IMG/VR virus record: IMGVR_UViG_3300032335_000058
Coordinates: 1-37,679 of that record
DNA: 37,679 bases
Strand: one strand, 5' to 3'
From: a virus
Taxonomy: Duplodnaviria > Caudoviricetes
The first letter of the stretch is position 1. Each line of letters begins with the position of its first letter. The position numbers and the translations under genes are program-made. Shown here in pieces: positions 24,160 to 37,272 of this stretch. The notes below the pieces were generated by a model. The model was given only the letters and a program-made list of their open reading frames with translations, ran no database searches and was not told the DNA's origin.

Positions 24160-24235
24160 TGGTAGCGGGTGATGGACTTGAACCACCGATCTCCGGTTTA
24201 TGAGACCGGCGAGATAACCACTTCTCCAACCCGCG
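24160..24235 (-). tRNA. tRNA-Met(CAT), initiator (fMet)-like, CCA encoded
   Basis: 76 nt: CGCGGGT TG GAGA AGTGGTTA TCTC G CCGGT CTCATAA ACCGG AGATC GGTGG TTCAAGT CCATC ACCCGCT A CCA. C1:U72 mismatch and A11:U24. Confidence 0.93.
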
Positions 24236-25438: not shown

Positions 25439-25731
25439 TTTTGCCTCCGTTTTATCTCGTCCAACACTTGCTCCCTGGTAAAAGACCTGTGTTTTTCGAT
25501 GCACCACAACATGCCATTGGCTGCTTTTTTATTTGGCCTGGTTGATTCCACCAGGGTCACGCAGCACTCTAGGCAACTCAATCGGTATTGCCCCCACTTC
25601 CTACCCGCCCGGCTTTCGCAGCCTGAACAAATTCTCTGATCATCTGCCTGGCCCGCTCCGCTGCTGCCGGGTCTGCTGGTTTCTCTGGCGGCGCTGGCAG
25701 CGCTGTCATCGGCTCCGGTATCTCCGGCCAT
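25435..25731 (-). CDS. Small Cys-rich (CxxC..CxxC) protein; start uncertain
   Basis: CSGC..CLECC in the C-terminal ~65 aa; stop coupled to the next ORF; 5' part overlaps the P-like gene. Confidence 0.45.
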   Translation of the reverse strand: MAGDTGADDSAASAARETSRPGSSGAGQADDQRICSGCESRAGRKWGQYRLSCLECCVTLVESTRPNKKAANGMLWCIEKHRSFTREQVLDEIKRRQK

Positions 25732-26216
25732 TGATTCTTTTTGATCTCCCGATCCAGCGCAATTTCCCACCGGCTTTTGATCTGCGGGTAACTGCTGCTC
25801 TTTAACTCCCATTGCAAATAGGTCATCGCCCAGAATATCGCCGGGTGCGACCACTCCCCTTTTTCTCCGCATTCCCTGCTCCTGATTCCAACTATGGCTT
25901 CGTGATATGCCCTCTCCGGCTCTATTTCGGGCCTACACGCCGCTAAAAATTCTGGGAGAGATGGGGGCCAAGGGTACTTCCTACGAACGGCAGCAAGGCC
26001 CGTTTGGATGGCCGTAGGGGTAATTCCGTCCTCAATGAATGCCTCTGCCCACACTTCGCGCCAATTCTGGATCTGTCCCTCGCTGCTAAATGCGGCCCGC
26101 CACCTGCTTGGATACAGCCCTTCCAATCGGTTGAACAGATGATCCATCAAACTGATGCCTAATTTCGGGTGAACAGCCAGCCAATTACTGGCCTGGGGTG
26201 ATGTCAATAACGACAT
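25578..26216 (-). CDS. Replication protein P-like (helicase loader)
   Basis: LFNRLEGLYPSRW..W.EAF.EDGIT...GL...WPPSLPEFLAACRP..WSHPAIFWA; follows the initiator; GGAGG RBS before the ATG at 26216. Confidence 0.75.
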   Translation of the reverse strand: MSLLTSPQASNWLAVHPKLGISLMDHLFNRLEGLYPSRWRAAFSSEGQIQNWREVWAEAFIEDGITPTAIQTGLAAVRRKYPWPPSLPEFLAACRPEIEPERAYHEAIVGIRSRECGEKGEWSHPAIFWAMTYLQWELKSSSYPQIKSRWEIALDREIKKNQWPEIPEPMTALPAPPEKPADPAAAERARQMIREFVQAAKAGRVGSGGNTD

Positions 26217-26874
26217 TTTGTTCCCTCCCTTTGTTGACAAATGCAAATGGATCAAACTTTTCGGCCTTGCCATTGGCCTTGTTTACCCACTCCGCTTTGA
26301 ATCCTTGCCAGCCCCTAGCCACGCATTCGGTAATTGCCTGGTTCAATGTCCAGCCCGCTTTATTGGCCTCGCGCTTGATGGCCTCCAGGGCCGTGCTGGT
26401 CAATGGTGACCTCTTGGCTTTCCTGATTGCTAAAAAATCCTCCCAGACTTTTGCATCAACTTCACCAGGCGCGTTAGCGCCTATAGGTTTTACTTGTTTA
26501 TTGGTTATTGGTTTATGGTTATTGGTTGGTTGAACGACTGTTGAACGCTCGTTAGACCGCCGTTGAGCAGAAACCTTCCCAGCCCTAGACGCTGCCTCAA
26601 TCTTATGGTGGTAGCGCTCAATCTCCTGTTGGCCTCTCTCACTCACCCACCCCCCACCCCCCGCATGAGAAAAAAATTCTTGGAGGATGGCGGCCACTTT
26701 CTTTTCGTGGCCCCTGGCGTTGATCAAACGCGCAACGACTGTTGGACATTCGTCCAACGGTTGTTCGTGTAAATAGTAAAGATCCAACAGCCTGCGATAG
26801 ATAGCATCCTCAATTAAGGACAGATGCTTCGTGTGACTTGTATAGTCACCGATGTTGAATTGATAGTAATGCAT
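26185..26874 (-). CDS. YdaU/DUF1376-family replication initiator (lambda O analogue)
   Basis: MHYYQFNIGDY..HTKHLS..ED.IYRRLLDLYY N-terminus, PTNNHKPITN linker, C-terminal W.DFL..RKAK...RGWQGF. Confidence 0.88.
   Translation of the reverse strand: MHYYQFNIGDYTSHTKHLSLIEDAIYRRLLDLYYLHEQPLDECPTVVARLINARGHEKKVAAILQEFFSHAGGGGWVSERGQQEIERYHHKIEAASRAGKVSAQRRSNERSTVVQPTNNHKPITNKQVKPIGANAPGEVDAKVWEDFLAIRKAKRSPLTSTALEAIKREANKAGWTLNQAITECVARGWQGFKAEWVNKANGKAEKFDPFAFVNKGREQNVVIDITPGQ
26488..26572. repeat. Putative replication origin (iteron-like repeats and strand-asymmetric tract) inside the initiator gene
   Basis: 11-bp period GTTGAACGACT GTTGAACGCTC GTTAGACCGCC GTTGAGCAGAA next to TTATTGG-type repeats. 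Confidence 0.55.
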
Positions 26875-27006
26875 ACAATCTCCATAGGTGCTGGCCTATC
26901 CGGTGGAAATTCCGGCAGGTCAGCCCAGTTAAGGGTTTAGTTCGGTCAGATAGACCAGCCCAATGGAGACTGAATATCTGACCCGCATTGCGCTTTCCAC
27001 AGCGCG
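26875..27006 (-). promoter_or_regulatory. Structured 5' leader RNA of the initiator gene
   Basis: Three hairpins, complementary loops GTGGAA/TTCCAC, and an alternative ~21-bp helix that covers the GGAGA RBS. Confidence 0.7.
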
Positions 27007-27010
27007 TTGA

Positions 27011-27214
27011 TCAAGATTCTAACTGCTCATTAAATCTCATGGCAACAATACCAAAATGGCGCTGCATTTCAATGGCATGCACATACGGCACATGATTGCG
27101 CCTGACCCATTGGCTGATGTTGGATTTGTGAATGCCCAGCATCATTGCCAATTTGGTCTGGCTGCCCGCCATCTCAATAGCCTCGCGGAGCGCTGCGGGT
27201 TTTTCTCTTTTCAT
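27011..27214 (-). CDS. Cro/YdaS-like HTH transcriptional regulator
   Basis: LREAIEMAGSQTKLAMMLGIHKSNISQWV; upstream of the initiator as in lambdoid phages. Confidence 0.85.
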   Translation of the reverse strand: MKREKPAALREAIEMAGSQTKLAMMLGIHKSNISQWVRRNHVPYVHAIEMQRHFGIVAMRFNEQLES

Positions 27215-27316
27215 TTCGGATGTCCCTAAAAATCACTAAAGCAAGCATTGTCAACATTATTAGCAAAAAAATCCAGATCTGTTGCGCCACAATATGTTCA
27301 ACAAAATAGGTCATTT

Positions 27317-27529
27317 TCAAACCTCCTTTATCGTTAAAACAATCCGCACCGGAAAGGTGTCCTTGTAATAATTCCCGCTGGCCGTATTGGCCTGGGCCAA
27401 ACCTTCCAAGGCCGCCTTCCTGGTTCGGAATAACCAGGTTCTGGCCGGTTCACCCGGCTCAACCTGGGGCTTCCAGACTAGATTGCCATATCTGTTCTTT
27501 AATGCCCAGCACTTAATTCGCGCAGCCAT
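27317..27529 (-). CDS. Hypothetical protein
   Basis: 70 aa, TGATG-coupled to ssb; LFRTRKAA motif. Confidence 0.65.
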   Translation of the reverse strand: MAARIKCWALKNRYGNLVWKPQVEPGEPARTWLFRTRKAALEGLAQANTASGNYYKDTFPVRIVLTIKEV

Positions 27530-27936
27530 CAGAACGGAATGTCATCATCAAGGTTATTGATCGACTTCTGCGGCTGGTATCCGTCCGCTTTAGCCTTCTC
27601 ATGGGGTGTCTGCTCAGACCGGCCACCAATCAACTCAACATCCATGACCTTGGCCCGCAACGATGTAGCCTGGCCGCTGCCATCCTTTTTGTCATAGGTC
27701 TCAATGTGCGGCTCACTTAGCACGACATGCACCTGTGATCCCTTGGTCATGTAGGGCAGCAACTTTTCTGCCCGGCTGCCCCAAAATGCCGCCTTAATCC
27801 ATTGTGTCGGGCGCTTGCCATCCTGCTCCCGCTTGCCGTAATTGAACGCCAGGCTTAACTCCACCACGACATCTCCCTGTGGGGTGTGCCGCGCCTGGGC
27901 ATCATTTCCTACTCGCACAACTCCAGACATCATCAT
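27529..27936 (-). CDS. ssb: Single-stranded DNA-binding protein
   Basis: OB-fold pattern (RVGNDA..R.TP.G..V.ELSLA..TQW....WG.RAE.L..Y..KGSQV) and acidic DDDIPF tail. Confidence 0.92.
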   Translation of the reverse strand: MMMSGVVRVGNDAQARHTPQGDVVVELSLAFNYGKREQDGKRPTQWIKAAFWGSRAEKLLPYMTKGSQVHVVLSEPHIETYDKKDGSGQATSLRAKVMDVELIGGRSEQTPHEKAKADGYQPQKSINNLDDDIPF

Positions 27937-33225: not shown

Positions 33226-34152
33226 TTATGCTGTGTATGTACCGCTGCTAGTAAATGTATGAATGGTGTAGCCGCCAGATGAGGTAACCGTTCCTCCGGT
33301 TCCTCGTTGTGCGCCAAGGTAACGGATAATTACAATTCCCGAACCCCCATTTGCTCCAGTACCACCAGATACTCGTCCACCACCGCCGCCACTACCACTA
33401 TTAGCAGACCCAACAGTTCCATTGTAAGAACCAAAAAAACCTCCGTTGCCACCGCCCGCTTGCCCCAAACCACCAACCTGTCCTGAACTTTCATAGCCGC
33501 CTGCACCCCCACCACCACCACCTGCACGGGCAGTTGCAGTTCCGTTAATAGAGGACGAAACGCCTATACCACCGTTAGCACCATCATCATAGCCCCGTCC
33601 CGGAGGGTAGTTTTGCCCAACACCACCCGCACCACCTCCACCGCTTGCTGCGTTTCCGTCATTTTGTGTGTCGTTTGCTGTGATATTTCCACCAGCATAT
33701 CCTTGATTAGCAGTACCAGCACCACCAGATTTAGGCGCACTTGTTGTATAAGATGAACCTCCTCCAGAACCGCCGCTCGATCCAGTTCCACCAGCATTAG
33801 CACCGGCTCCACCACCGATAGATGTAATAGAACCAAAAACAGAATTATTACCGTTGCCACCATTAGCAGTACCGCCTGCACCAACCGTGACTGTATAAGA
33901 ACTTGCTATTGTAAGCGGTAACGCAGACTCAGCAGATCCACCACCACCTGATGATTCGCCAGCGACAGAAGATCTATAACCGCCTGCACCTCCACCTCCA
34001 CCATAAGTATTTCCACCACCACCGCCACCAGCAATAACAAGATATTCAACAGAATAATTCTGTATAGGCCAATTGCTTCCTTTTAAAGCATTGCGGACAT
34101 CATTAAGTTTCCAAATGCCATTGGCATCGGATGTACTTGGAAATTGTGCCAT
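33226..34152 (-). CDS. Glycine-rich domain fibre-associated protein (paralogue 3)
   Basis: VEYLVIAGGGGGG...GGSGIVIIRY...GYTIHTFTSSGTYTA. Confidence 0.8.
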   Translation of the reverse strand: MAQFPSTSDANGIWKLNDVRNALKGSNWPIQNYSVEYLVIAGGGGGGNTYGGGGGAGGYRSSVAGESSGGGGSAESALPLTIASSYTVTVGAGGTANGGNGNNSVFGSITSIGGGAGANAGGTGSSGGSGGGSSYTTSAPKSGGAGTANQGYAGGNITANDTQNDGNAASGGGGAGGVGQNYPPGRGYDDGANGGIGVSSSINGTATARAGGGGGGAGGYESSGQVGGLGQAGGGNGGFFGSYNGTVGSANSGSGGGGGRVSGGTGANGGSGIVIIRYLGAQRGTGGTVTSSGGYTIHTFTSSGTYTA

Positions 34153-34511
34153 TACGAAATCTCCTCGTAAGACACAATGATTTCAAGATCACCTGAAGCA
34201 GAGGCCAGCGCTGTAATTTTGTCACCTTCCTCAAGGTAAATCGCTTTGCTCATCACATCTAGTGTTGCATCGGCTGGTACTGTGATCGTGTGTGCAATCT
34301 CGTATGTTGTTGTATTGTCAGCGTTGTAGAACCCAACAGTCACATCGGCGTTGTTTGCGCCATCCACATTGGCTACCAAAATTGCATTGACTTTGAACAC
34401 CTTACCGCTGCCTGCAGAATTGGTCACAATGTCTGCGCTTGAAGTAGTTAAAGCAGCGCCAACGGTTCTGCCTGTAATAGTTGCCACATTGACGATATTA
34501 GGTGCTGCCAT
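34152..34511 (-). CDS. Small beta-rich fibre adaptor-like protein (MAAPNIVNV type)
   Basis: ILVANVDG...IYLEEGDKI.A.AS...LEIIVSYEEIS; paralogous pattern to 37272..37592. Confidence 0.75.
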   Translation of the reverse strand: MAAPNIVNVATITGRTVGAALTTSSADIVTNSAGSGKVFKVNAILVANVDGANNADVTVGFYNADNTTTYEIAHTITVPADATLDVMSKAIYLEEGDKITALASASGDLEIIVSYEEIS

Positions 34512-34514
34512 GTT

Positions 34515-34820
34515 TTATCCTCCGAAAACCACGGCCATAGCGATGGCCTTGCCTGTTGATGCTGTATTAGCCAGGGTCACCGGCTGATATGACAGCGCTT
34601 GAAATTCGTCATTAAGTGCAGCGGCAGATGTCAGCACCACAGTCAATCCATTTGATGCCGTGTAGTCTGATGGTGTCAACAATACCCCGTTGAGAAACAC
34701 ATCGACATAGCCAACCACATACCCGCCAGTAATGTTAAATGTTGTCTGGCCGCTAGTGGCTGTGACATTAGTCACCGTGCGGATCGTATTGCCAAATGGG
34801 GGAACGCCAAGATAACTCAT
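34515..34820 (-). CDS. Short fibre-linker protein
   Basis: MSYLG.PP start, ATSGQTTF..Y..G.VDVFLNGV.L...DYTA.NG domain, C-terminal GKAIAMAVVFGG. Confidence 0.75.
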   Translation of the reverse strand: MSYLGVPPFGNTIRTVTNVTATSGQTTFNITGGYVVGYVDVFLNGVLLTPSDYTASNGLTVVLTSAAALNDEFQALSYQPVTLANTASTGKAIAMAVVFGG

Positions 34821-35821
34821 GCTGTGAATGTCCCGCTTGATGTAAATGTATGGTATGTATAACCACCGCTACTGGTTACTGTGCCACCGGTTCCTCGTTG
34901 AGAGCCAGAGTAACGGATAATGACAACACCTGAACCACCAGCGCCGCCTGCACCTTGATTGCTTGAGCCATTTAAATGCCCACCTCCACCACCACCGCCG
35001 CCTCTGTTTGCTGTTCCAGAAGTGGCGGGATTACCACTAGATGCGCCACCGCCTCCACCACCAGAACCACCAGCACCAACAGTTCCAGTACCACGAACCC
35101 CACCTCCACCACCACCGGCGTATGTAGTACCTAAAGATTTCCAATTAGTGCCAGCACCTCCGGCTCCAGCAGTAGCACCACTTGCAGACCCACCGACAGC
35201 AGAGGCCCCACCACCACCGCCAGCACCCGCATCACTTAAAGCGGCATTAGCACCATTACCGCCGGAGTTACCTTGACCAGAAGTACCAGCGTACCCGGTT
35301 GCATAAGTATTATTGCTATGAGTTCCTCCACCACCTGAGCCTCCTGATGCTCCAGCACCAACTTCAGATGCCCCAGCACCGCCAGCAGTTGCTGTGTTAG
35401 ATGCAAAACCAGAATTTGATCCACTTGTGGCTACAGTTCCAATTCCACTACCGCCACGATTTACACCACCACTTCCACCCGACCCGCCAGCGCCAACTGT
35501 TACTGTATATGCTGTGAGCGTAGTAACATTTTGTGTGCTGTCTAAAAGACCACCCGCACCACCGCCACCTCCAGCAGAACCGCCACCACCACCTCCAGCA
35601 ACTATAAGATATTCAACAGAATACTGTACTGTTGCAACTATAGATGCCCAGTTAGTTCCATCATAAACTTCATACTTTGAGTCTGTGGTGTTATATCTAA
35701 CCATGCCAGTACTGGCCGTGGCCGGACGCTCTGCGGTAGTACCCGCAGGCAGATCAAATGCACCAGTACCAGCGCTGCTTGTATCTTGCGCGGTTCGGCC
35801 TAGGTTTCGCGCTTTACCCAT
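34817..35821 (-). CDS. Glycine-rich domain fibre-associated protein (paralogue 2)
   Basis: MGKARNL start, DLPAGTTAERP..GMVRYNT unit, Gly-rich domain ending YTYHTFTSSGTFTA. Confidence 0.8.
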   Translation of the reverse strand: MGKARNLGRTAQDTSSAGTGAFDLPAGTTAERPATASTGMVRYNTTDSKYEVYDGTNWASIVATVQYSVEYLIVAGGGGGGSAGGGGGAGGLLDSTQNVTTLTAYTVTVGAGGSGGSGGVNRGGSGIGTVATSGSNSGFASNTATAGGAGASEVGAGASGGSGGGGTHSNNTYATGYAGTSGQGNSGGNGANAALSDAGAGGGGGASAVGGSASGATAGAGGAGTNWKSLGTTYAGGGGGGVRGTGTVGAGGSGGGGGGASSGNPATSGTANRGGGGGGGGHLNGSSNQGAGGAGGSGVVIIRYSGSQRGTGGTVTSSGGYTYHTFTSSGTFTA

Positions 35822-36201
35822 TATGGCTGCTCTACTTGTACCCAGGATGTCGTTGCCTCATCCCAGCGATACATATTTGCATCTTCAGGATAAGGTACTG
35901 GCGATTCCCACAAGCACGATGTCTCGTTAAGATTCCAAGACGCATACGGCTTTGGAGGAATAAACGCATCACGCTGTGCGTCATAAGAAAAGCCAATGCC
36001 AGCATAATTCTTACGCAGCGCTTTGGTCTGATCGGCAGACGGTTCGTTAGTCTCTGGATTGTAGTGAACCCCACCGCGAGTGTTATAGGATGTCTGAATC
36101 CACGCACCAGGTGAAGTGTCTACAAATGTCTGAAAAAATTCTGGTTCGGCAACAATGACCTGTTCCACGATTCCATTGTTTACTTTTGCAAAATGTGCCA
36201 T
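35821..36201 (-). CDS. MAHFA-type protein accompanying Gly-rich fibre genes
   Basis: MAHFAK..WIQTSYN..LRKNYAGIG..YD..RDAFIPPKPY.SW.L.E..C.W..PVPYP; GGAGA RBS. Confidence 0.8.
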   Translation of the reverse strand: MAHFAKVNNGIVEQVIVAEPEFFQTFVDTSPGAWIQTSYNTRGGVHYNPETNEPSADQTKALRKNYAGIGFSYDAQRDAFIPPKPYASWNLNETSCLWESPVPYPEDANMYRWDEATTSWVQVEQP

Positions 36202-36210
36202 GTATATCTC

Positions 36211-37272
36211 CTATGCTGTATAAGTTCCAGATGATGTAAAGGTATGGTAGGTGTATCCACCAGATTGTGTAACTGTCCCGCCAGATCCTTGTTGTGCTCC
36301 AGCATAGCGAATGATTACGATGCCGGAACCACCGGAACCACCATTGGCTGGCACACTTCCTGTCCAACTGCCTGCACCTCCACCTCCACCTGTATTTGCA
36401 GTTCCTGAAATGCCATCTCTGCCGCCACTAATACCATATCCACCATTTCCACCACCGCCTGATCCACCAACGCCGCCAACAGTTCCACTTCCGCTGAGTC
36501 CGTAATTACTACCGCCACCGCCGCCAGCGTAAAAAGTTCCTAGTGATTGCCAATTAAGACCAACGCCACCATTACCCGGAATAGTAGATGTTGCATTATT
36601 ACCCGTTGCCCCAGCACCGCCACCACCTCCACCAATGTATGGAGAGCCACCATAGGCTCGTCCACCAGCGTTACCTTGCCCTGATGTTCCTGATCCACCA
36701 GCACCTGTTGTTGTTGTAGTTCCACCGCCACCACCACCGCCAGAGCCACCAGATCGTCCAGTTTCATAGGTGGCGTTACCAGTCCAATATGTACCACCAC
36801 CGCCACCACCAACGGATGTTATAGAATTAAAAACAGAGTTAGAACCATCTTTACCATAAGAAGAATTTGACTCTCTTGGCGCAGTTCCACCAGCACCGCC
36901 TGCGCCAATTGTAACGGTGTAGGAATTAGTGGCAGCAAATGTGATTGATGCTGTTCTATATCCACCAGCGCCACCGCCACCGCCAAGGTCTGCGCCACCA
37001 CCGCCACCACCAGCAACAACAAGATAATCAGCGGAATAATTTTGCGCTGTAGTTGTTACATCACGCCATTGTGTTTCAACATACATTTCATATTTGTCAT
37101 TATCTGTGTTGTATCTCACCATGCCATTAGCCGGTGACCCTGGCCTTTCGGCAGTAGTACCCGCTGGCAAATCAAAATACCCCGTGCTACTGTTAGCCTG
37201 GTCAGATACCTCAGTAGGCGTTACCTCAACGCCTGCAATGTTCGGTGCTGGGGGCGATCCAATGTAAGACAT
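36211..37272 (-). CDS. Glycine-rich domain fibre-associated protein (paralogue 1)
   Basis: MSYIG.PP start, FDLPAGTTAERP..GMVRYNT, Gly-rich domain ending YTYHTFTSSGTYTA. Confidence 0.8.
   Translation of the reverse strand: MSYIGSPPAPNIAGVEVTPTEVSDQANSSTGYFDLPAGTTAERPGSPANGMVRYNTDNDKYEMYVETQWRDVTTTAQNYSADYLVVAGGGGGGADLGGGGGAGGYRTASITFAATNSYTVTIGAGGAGGTAPRESNSSYGKDGSNSVFNSITSVGGGGGGTYWTGNATYETGRSGGSGGGGGGGTTTTTGAGGSGTSGQGNAGGRAYGGSPYIGGGGGGAGATGNNATSTIPGNGGVGLNWQSLGTFYAGGGGGSNYGLSGSGTVGGVGGSGGGGNGGYGISGGRDGISGTANTGGGGGAGSWTGSVPANGGSGGSGIVIIRYAGAQQGSGGTVTQSGGYTYHTFTSSGTYTA

Follow-up and report, generated by a model that had tools for sequence, protein, structure and literature searches.

A family of phage RNA leaders with two exclusive, covarying folds before replication initiator genes: a putative self-closing switch

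What limits the synthesis of a replication initiator in a phage whose initiator gene is preceded by a structured RNA? Control of lambda-like initiator genes normally falls to protein repressors. The window, by which is meant the whole stretch of 37,679 bases analyzed here, is the complete virus record IMGVR_UViG_3300032335_000058, which has direct terminal repeats and is rated 100% complete. The minus strand carries nearly all of its genes, and those for structural proteins are podovirus-like. Between a YdaS/Cro-like helix-turn-helix (HTH) gene and the DUF1376 initiator gene is a gap that holds, on the minus strand, a leader that the first-pass annotation had read as an RNA switch acting on the ribosome-binding site of the initiator. 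Judged by comparison with related loci, this leader belongs to a real and well-supported family of RNA switches, as yet uncharacterized, for which we infer the functional step.

The leader and its setting in the phage genome

The genes and the promoter-like site around the leader are the following.

25578..26216, minus strand: lambda P-like helicase loader gene, next gene of the operon (Pfam PF06992; phrog_109)
26185..26874, minus strand: DUF1376/YdaU lambda O-like replication initiator gene, the controlled gene, 229 aa (Pfam PF07120, E 6e-21; PHROG primosomal and O-like; ATG at 26874)
27011..27214, minus strand: YdaS/Cro-like HTH gene upstream of the leader (Pfam search), a context not conserved family-wide
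27016..27045, minus strand: sigma-70-type promoter, -35 at 27045-27040, spacer of 18 nt, -10 at 27021-27016 (10/12 consensus match)

The promoter-like site is contained in the 3'-terminal part of the upstream HTH gene, its -10 element ends 10 nt before hairpin 1, and the +1 of the leader transcript is predicted near 27010. A TAnnnT hexamer stands directly 5' of hairpin 1 in 50/59 leaders of the family, against a background of 5%, so that the leader RNA likely begins at +1 and forms the very start of the message. The elements of the leader, in the order of transcription, are listed below; four segments (a to d) can each pair with two partners, and two boxes (x and x') are complementary to each other.

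26990..27005, minus strand: P1 (hairpin 1), 4-bp stem and 8-nt loop (99.6% of cells paired; two invariant pairs)
26994..27000, minus strand: box x, 7-nt loop sequence, partner of x' (12 types in 59 leaders; double changes at 5/7 pairs)
26975..26986, minus strand: segment a, whose early partner is b (P3, the outer stem of hairpin 2) and whose final partner is c (P2) (cognate versus noncognate duplexes, a-b z -6.6, a-c z -10.8)
26963..26972, minus strand: anti-Shine-Dalgarno strand, forming outer helix B from the 5' side; early on, part of it lies in the inner stem of hairpin 2 (outer helix z -12.1)
26943..26959, minus strand: segment b, pairing with a early or with d in the final fold; its terminal CCG can pair with CGG before x' (P5) (b-d z -12.7)
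26924..26935, minus strand: P4, small variable hairpin (54.8% paired as counted; poorly aligned in the MAFFT alignment)
26912..26923, minus strand: segment c, joined first to d (hairpin 3) and finally to a (P2) (c-d z -4.4, a-c z -10.8)
26903..26909, minus strand: box x', complement of x, after A, AA or TAA (full pairing with x in 139/141 loci)
26890..26902, minus strand: segment d, which supplies the 3' strand first to hairpin 3 and in the final fold to inner helix B (duplex test and folding)
26876..26885, minus strand: 3' strand of outer helix B, with the Shine-Dalgarno (SD)-like GGAGA at 26883-26879 (paired in the minimum-energy fold in 59/59 leaders)

Three hairpins, complementary boxes and a long helix over GGAGA had been noted from the letters of this DNA, and all of them are present on the minus strand of the window, with hairpin 2 at 26983-26944, hairpin 3 at 26924-26890 and the long helix formed by 26972-26947 with 26902-26876. 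Hairpin 1 was found as claimed, although its fifth pair (T-A) is possible in only 18/59 leaders; the conserved hairpin therefore has a stem of 4 bp and a loop of 8 nt, 7 of which pair. A 151-nt stretch of the window folds at -58.8 kcal/mol (z -4.7), and none of 200 shuffled sequences did as well. The long-helix fold of the leader is calculated at -59.4 kcal/mol versus -54.0 to -56.1 kcal/mol for the three-hairpin fold. In stepwise folding of the window leader, the three-hairpin fold leads from about 26944 until the SD strand emerges, except for one interval with a-c pairing.

Elsewhere in the window, a tRNA gene with a CAT anticodon lies at 24163-24235 (minus strand) between a RusA-like gene and the packaging genes; such a gene is also present in locus L004. 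Three paralogous glycine-rich tail genes (Pfam Gly_rich_2; 33226-37272, minus strand) adjoin an Mtd_N gene, and RNA contigs with joints between these paralogs may reflect shuffling or misassembly. Two open reading frames of 200 to 221 aa on the plus strand (35-1306) overlap a minus-strand tail gene, match neither Pfam nor PHROG and are probably shadows.

The leader family and its covariation

Related leaders were collected with several patterns. This leader was found at 7 of the best 80 of 595 DUF1376 loci in IMG/VR. When two loop bases per side were unspecified, there were 46 pattern matches, all complementary at those bases (4 dinucleotide types, near-duplicates included), and a pattern with both loops unspecified had 70 matches and added new loop types. 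A third pattern with five free bases had 83 matches in GTDB genomes and at least 120 in metagenomes (49/64 parts); 42 of its matches were confirmed by profile, all of them metagenomic, and all five free bases were paired in 41/42 of these versus 0/161 chance matches. The family set of 142 matching loci was reduced, after one truncated locus was dropped, to 141 (among which one contig occurs twice) and then to 59 distinct leaders. Pairing of x with x' is incomplete in two loci, L167, which is one base short, and L301. The latter (L301:527-664) has the only plainly mismatched boxes in the family, each of which fits a different co-occurring type, and it is likely a recombinant or an assembly chimera of two such types. 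Weak extra covariance-model matches were observed at L409:3698-3842 (minus strand; 26.2 bits) and L423:2892-3025 (17.7 bits), the former about 440 nt upstream of the main leader of the same genome, where it could be a degenerate second copy.

The searches run found no cultured carrier or host of the leader. None of the 83 pattern matches in bacterial genomes fit the profile (the pattern misses members with a GTGC stem), blastn of GenBank phages with two leader types gave no match, the best plasmid match (37 nt, E 0.4) was a chance one, and a covariance model applied to 6 of 121 DUF1376 phage records scored 8.8 bits at best.

A long open reading frame starts 24 to 48 nt 3' of x' in 58/59 leaders. 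The 58 genes that follow the leader comprise 28 of DUF1376, 4 HNH, 3 Lin1244_N, 2 HTH_36, 1 SNF2, 1 Crp-HTH and 19 without a family; the 11 in named families besides DUF1376 are of initiator or nuclease type. Among the 41 genes scanned of the 49 called before the leader, there were 10 YdaS/Cro-like genes, 8 CHC2 zinc fingers and 3 short DUF1376 genes; the suggestion that the leader stands where lambda has cII thus suits the window, whereas for the family it is only partly correct. Since the neighboring genes vary on both sides, the leader is, by its genomic context, a mobile promoter-plus-UTR module. In loci L090, L102 and L189, a short gene (105 to 119 aa) with DUF1376 only lies directly 5' of the leader and of the full-length initiator-type gene that follows.

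The final fold together with the loop pairing accounts well for the MAFFT alignment of the 59 leaders: 92.8% of cells are paired and double changes occur at 24/31 pairs, versus 39 to 45% paired in slid controls. The 7-base helix x-x' is paired in 99.5% of cells, with double changes at 5/7 pairs, bearing out the proposed complementarity between the loops of hairpins 1 and 3. In an alignment-light test, cognate duplexes were compared with noncognate duplexes among 30 representatives under 85% identity, a cut that reduces relatedness among them and leaves some in place. The resulting z-scores were -10.7 for x-x', -10.8 for a-c, -12.7 for b-d, -12.1 for outer helix B, -6.6 for a-b and -4.4 for c-d, the last being the weakest signal among the helices tested. 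Seven of eight control segment pairs gave p>0.15; the eighth, b-c, gave p=0.01 at the 85% cut but not at 75%. Both of the mutually exclusive helix sets therefore covary, and by this evidence the four segments exchange partners between an open arrangement (a-b with c-d) and a closed one (a-c with b-d), both of which are conserved. The fold that buries the ribosome-binding site, which had been put forward as an alternative to the hairpins, is thus one of the covarying pair.

Further details agree across the family. P2 (a-c) has 5 to 10 bp in 58/59 leaders and 3 to 10 bp overall. P5, of 3 bp, is possible in 59/59 leaders, as CCG/CGG in 55 and as CCA/TGG in 4, the latter representing one compensated change in a clade of four. 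Only 11 of 164 columns are invariant, most of them explained by pairing with several partners; the invariant bases include G3, C4, G13, C14, A17 and A18 and two further A's. Helix B is followed by a U-run in only L099 and L327 and by none in the other 57/59.

The counted pairs include 111 G-U cells versus 16 A-C cells, an excess that fixes the strand and indicates RNA, and in 56/59 leaders the better fold is that of the sense strand and not of the complement; the G-U pairs had earlier been taken to favor a minus-strand RNA in the window. A DNA-level role for single-stranded DNA hairpins was rejected on the same counts and the strand asymmetry. Template switching as the source of the paired loop changes was set aside by reasoning, the 7-bp arms being short and G-U pairs persisting in helix B.

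Predicted folding order and alternative explanations

The two folds suggest an order of events during transcription. In the nascent RNA, segment a would pair with b in hairpin 2, hiding the anti-SD strand, and c would pair with d in hairpin 3, leaving the SD free. Box x would then dock on x' and bring the unpaired 5' end of a beside c at the top of hairpin 3, and this docking would nucleate the four-strand exchange from a-b and c-d to a-c and b-d. Helix B would zip over the SD, the RNA would finish as a doubly pseudoknotted OFF form, and ribosome loading would be confined to the interval before closure. In L099 and L327, where the same helix is joined to a U-run, the decision would instead be one of transcription termination. 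We give an even chance to a self-closing kinetic switch of this kind, which would resemble the MS2 maturation leader and in which loop docking would likely drive closure. The leader would then likely be a built-in timer that limits initiator synthesis, and from this we infer the timing or limiting of replication that had been proposed for it.

Folding predictions with ViennaRNA, which ignores pseudoknots, are largely consistent with this order. The final fold is the minimum-energy fold and buries the SD in 59/59 leaders, at a cost for opening the SD of 4.8 to 24 kcal/mol (mean, 15.4). Once b is made, a-b is the predicted fold in 58/59 truncated transcripts, and immediately before emergence of the SD strand, the prediction has a-b in 48/59, c-d in 46/59 and b-d in 10/59, counts that describe stepwise minimum-energy folds and not a folding pathway. 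The a-b pairing is presumably under selection of its own because it does not follow from the final fold. Several predictions fit an open intermediate less well: a-c is already predicted in 29/59 leaders once c is made, b-d is predicted before the end of the transcript even without a trigger in the terminator-type leader L099, and closure could win at once if x-x' were counted. A 23-bp helix crossed by two others may also be sterically doubtful.

The pairing of x with x' is taken to belong with the closed fold and to drive closure, because it is compatible with a-c and helix B, its geometry is like that of an H-type pseudoknot, leader L112 keeps it, and docking would place the strands suitably. 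L112 has neither a-b nor c-d in any predicted intermediate and retains x-x', a-c and helix B. An H-type pseudoknot is a known geometry that the arrangement of x-x' would fit, with 1 nt before x, none after it, 7 bp and invariant A's in the linkers.

A purely internal timer leaves one feature of the family unexplained, namely, that change at the two central loop pairs is as frequent as at linker bases that do not pair. These pairs show 0.21 to 0.29 double changes per pair versus 0.004 to 0.017 in helix B, a rate close to the 0.18 to 0.21 single changes per site in the unpaired linkers (closeness was judged from columns outside those tested). On the 59-leaf tree, 26 changes of loop type are counted, where the minimum is 11, and L135 and L155 differ by a swap of three loop pairs with zero substitutions in the body. 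Fast turnover of this sort is the pattern expected from selection for new specificities. The main rival, possible though in our view unlikely, is that the same pairings act in trans, as in seqA/CI of P4: an accumulated or processed leader RNA, either the domain closed by helix B with c and x' free or a 5' piece with P1 and a, would bind new transcripts, block a-b and force the OFF fold. Replication would thereby come under negative feedback, and phages sharing the loop letters would be excluded. The layout, in which two 5' targets precede a helix-closed domain that holds their complements (x-x' and a-c covary), is as expected for it. Also on its side, no tyrosine integrase was detected in 15 carrier records or among the 46 scanned open reading frames of the window, and no S24 repressor, resolvase or ParA over cut-off was detected in 16 carrier records, 9 of them at least 90% complete, in line with the idea that the leader replaces repressor control.

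Against a role in trans, the excess among 17 disjoint close pairs was 4/119 versus 2/289 (Fisher p=0.06), and helix B is slowed by its two partners and the SD. No terminator follows helix B in 57/59 leaders, and a CCA tail is present in 0/59. A search of 15 genomes, cut into 20-kb pieces and in three cases minus the last 0.4 to 1.8 kb, turned up neither a second copy nor a second target; the cognate 7-mer had no excess of matches there and no consistent second match. Boxes x and x' also hold each other in the final fold, so that a free RNA would need an extra processing step. A bolder extension, which we hold to be doubtful, is an RNA-only self-recognition in phages without a repressor or integrase: early transcripts would make the initiator, and the accumulated leader would silence transcripts with the same loop code, whether its own or those of a coinfecting relative. 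On that view, each of the 12 loop codes would define an exclusion group, diversifying selection would act on these groups, and the slot before the gene could be served interchangeably by this leader, int-alpA or a third leader family.

The remaining alternatives are less probable. In one of them, which is improbable, a protein or small ligand would bind the doubly pseudoknotted core and set the ratio of ON to OFF, as in a riboswitch or in autogenous control such as that of T4 gene 32. The two expression platforms of the family, SD burial and the U-run of L099 and L327, would suit such a regulator, as would the invariant bases named above and the int-alpA-like element that stands in tandem with the leader in L084 and L088 (pattern match only); the scarcity of invariant columns, mostly accounted for by multiple pairing, would not. 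Loop type shows no link to the protein encoded downstream and the neighbors vary, so no phage-encoded binder is evident.

It is hardly likely that the loop-loop kiss stabilizes the open three-hairpin fold and activates translation, as does the pseudoknot of IncI/IncB plasmids. Box x' does lie in the loop of hairpin 3 behind A's, c-d covaries, and in the 24 TAA-type leaders the T before x' and the A after it co-occur and extend the stem of hairpin 3, which is why a kiss in the open fold is probably also real; in the self-closing switch it is read as the first step of the exchange. The closed fold is nevertheless lower by a mean of 15 kcal/mol, compared with -7.7 kcal/mol from the cognate x-x' duplex, and x-x' is possible in the closed fold as well. 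L112 retains x-x' without predicted a-b or c-d, and a leader peptide is not conserved.

A cis-encoded antisense RNA from the opposite strand, competing for x like the Inc RNA of ColIb-P9, is very unlikely indeed. Incompatibility within the I-complex plasmids is set by loop changes, according to the account cited (PMC10724649), and a promoter-like site on the plus strand of the window (26817-26846) is directed into the leader; it is one of 4 found versus 1.5 +/- 1.2 expected and so within chance. In a search confined to -10 elements of the TAnnnT type, no antisense position was common to at least 6/59 leaders, and unrelated downstream genes leave no place there for a common antisense promoter. 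The phage or a close relative is present in two freshwater metatranscriptomes, with the capsid region deepest; RNA contigs in both stop inside the leader (26915 and 26925), at a depth of 3 to 4 with many holes that deprives these ends of evidential weight.

At DUF1376 loci, structured RNA leaders contrast with the usual protein repressors. Three leader types, defined as pattern classes, take the place of the upstream coupled gene at 66 of the best 80 of 595 loci, and no integrase or S24 repressor is seen in the complete genomes checked. The leader family is a compact test case of 130 nt in which both folds covary and natural loop variants permit cognate to be compared with noncognate pairs, so that the means by which such phages ration replication or keep out relatives in the absence of a repressor become directly testable. 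If it works as proposed, a four-strand exchange that closes by itself, on either an SD or a terminator, could also serve RNA engineering as a useful part.

Comparison with known systems

No Rfam family matched the leader at gathering score or, in 26700-27600, at E<=10, the best hit being a chance 18-bit microRNA hairpin. For the C4-type models, which the first-pass annotation had singled out, there was no window match at gathering score, none at E<=10 in 26700-27600 and none at E<=1 for L086, L099 and L327. The topology is partly similar to that of an HDV-like ribozyme, which has a fixed 7-bp P1, a P3/L3 hairpin with the P1.1 strand and a catalytic C in J4/2; it was rejected because a-c has 3 to 10 bp, no enclosing P3 is present in the alignment and Rfam gave no match. 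No description of the leader was found in the literature, the supplement of PMC5737381 and the alignments of PMC10690425 lying outside the scope of the search. The candidate list of PMC10690425 includes DNAVirus_4653, an entry of 124 nt with 43 sequences, 37 of them from freshwater, and no terminator call. It gives 13 of them within 25 bases of YdaU/DUF1376 genes and lists 3 covarying bases and no mechanism (PMC10690425), and the main text mentions neither 4653 nor YdaU nor DUF1376. Compared by length, count, habitat and downstream gene only, DNAVirus_4653 may be this RNA, its switch and pseudoknots being undescribed in that source.

Among phage leaders, IsrK of Gifsy-1 is described as a terminated short RNA that activates in trans (PMC4825925). 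That account makes it alike in having two alternative folds, of which the stable one is translationally silent, and a leader part able to act on it; the present leader differs by having no U-run after helix B in 57/59 members. In related phages, the int-alpA RNA (RF02996) stands in this slot ahead of DUF1376 genes, at 5 loci over gathering score and at 43 of the best 80 of 595 by pattern, and one of its loops, likewise variable, is complementary to a different part of its leader. Its sequence and fold are different, with a three-way junction and a length of about 70 nt, and its model does not match the window leader.

Some observations on the other leaders of this slot stand apart from the family. 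In L084 and L088, the tandem int-alpA-like element lies 70 nt upstream of hairpin 1 with a -10 element upstream of both (seen by pattern only; Rfam gives no score at E<=0.5). In int-alpA-like leaders (L011-L079, e.g., L027:2909-3000 and L062:1843-1931), one or two boxes just before the start codon are complementary to the loop of the second hairpin, with a cognate energy of -7.3 versus -4.8 kcal/mol when permuted (0/10,000; 39 leaders), which suggests a pseudoknot or antisense target beyond the Rfam model. The third leader family, without an Rfam match, was found by pattern at 16 of the best 80 of 595 loci, its members (L008, L016, L045, L048, L049, L070, L072, L074, L075, L077 and L080) lying about 110 nt before the DUF1376 start, and it is also present in GenBank record MW202520 and at L431:575-690. 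A three-way junction, closed by a long helix and a U-run, here contains two sites to which the loop of a 5' hairpin and another 5' box are complementary; the letters covary by eye, and several members carry the UUGGCG loop known from ColIb-P9.

In repZ of ColIb-P9 and repA of IncB, a pseudoknot activates translation, a leader peptide is needed and an antisense RNA blocks the pseudoknot (PMC4705826, PMC10724649). The analogy drawn earlier with these plasmids extends, as far as they are described there, to a long-range pairing from a 5' hairpin loop, a leader of a replication initiator and a buried SD. It fails in the control: the leader has no conserved peptide or antisense -10, an upstream ATG is present in the 5' part of only 14/59 leaders, and not one of the 12 loop types has the GGCG/CGCC pairing. 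The pairing of the loops apparently belongs to the closed fold, to which the predicted energies and L112 point.

C4 RNA, which as a discrete processed RNA confers immunity in trans, has a second target (a2-b2) and a tRNA-like 3' CCA tail for processing by RNase P. In the present family, no CCA occurs within 7 nt after helix B in any of the 59 leaders, no consistent match to a second downstream target was found in 15 genomes, the ribosome site lies inside the closing helix and no integrase is detected in the carriers. The c4 antisense RNA is Rfam family RF01695 (PMC2864571), and in P4, the CI RNA is described as pairing with seqA upstream and seqC downstream to stop expression of the replication genes (PMC4825925). 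The likeness to seqA/CI/seqC of P4 and C4 of P1/P7, so far as these sources describe them, is one of layout, with a promoter, 5' targets, a helix-closed domain whose two segments are complementary to the upstream targets, replication genes next and variable loop letters; it is this part of the earlier analogy that stands, while membership in the C4/CI group does not.

The closest parallel to the self-closing switch is the maturation-gene 5' UTR of levivirus MS2, in which a metastable hairpin delays the SD-burying helix and leaves a brief window for translation (PMC4615214). In its predicted manner of working, the leader would combine this MS2 timer with the layout of P4. There is no homology between the leader and that of MS2. 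MS2 is a single-stranded RNA phage with a 7-bp long-distance helix and no loop-loop trigger in the description cited (PMC4615214), whereas the present leader has a helix of about 23 bp and a predicted four-strand exchange with two crossing helices and belongs to a replication initiator gene of a double-stranded DNA phage. The two are alike, within that description, in that a 5' hairpin is present, the upstream anti-SD strand is at first sequestered by a metastable hairpin and the SD ends up buried in a long-range helix, so that translation has only a brief opening. Of these features, the leader family shows the SD buried by a covarying long-range helix, predicted in 59/59 members, and an earlier, excluding hairpin, a-b, predicted in 58/59 truncated transcripts and covarying (z -6.6), whose inner stem in the window lies over the anti-SD strand.
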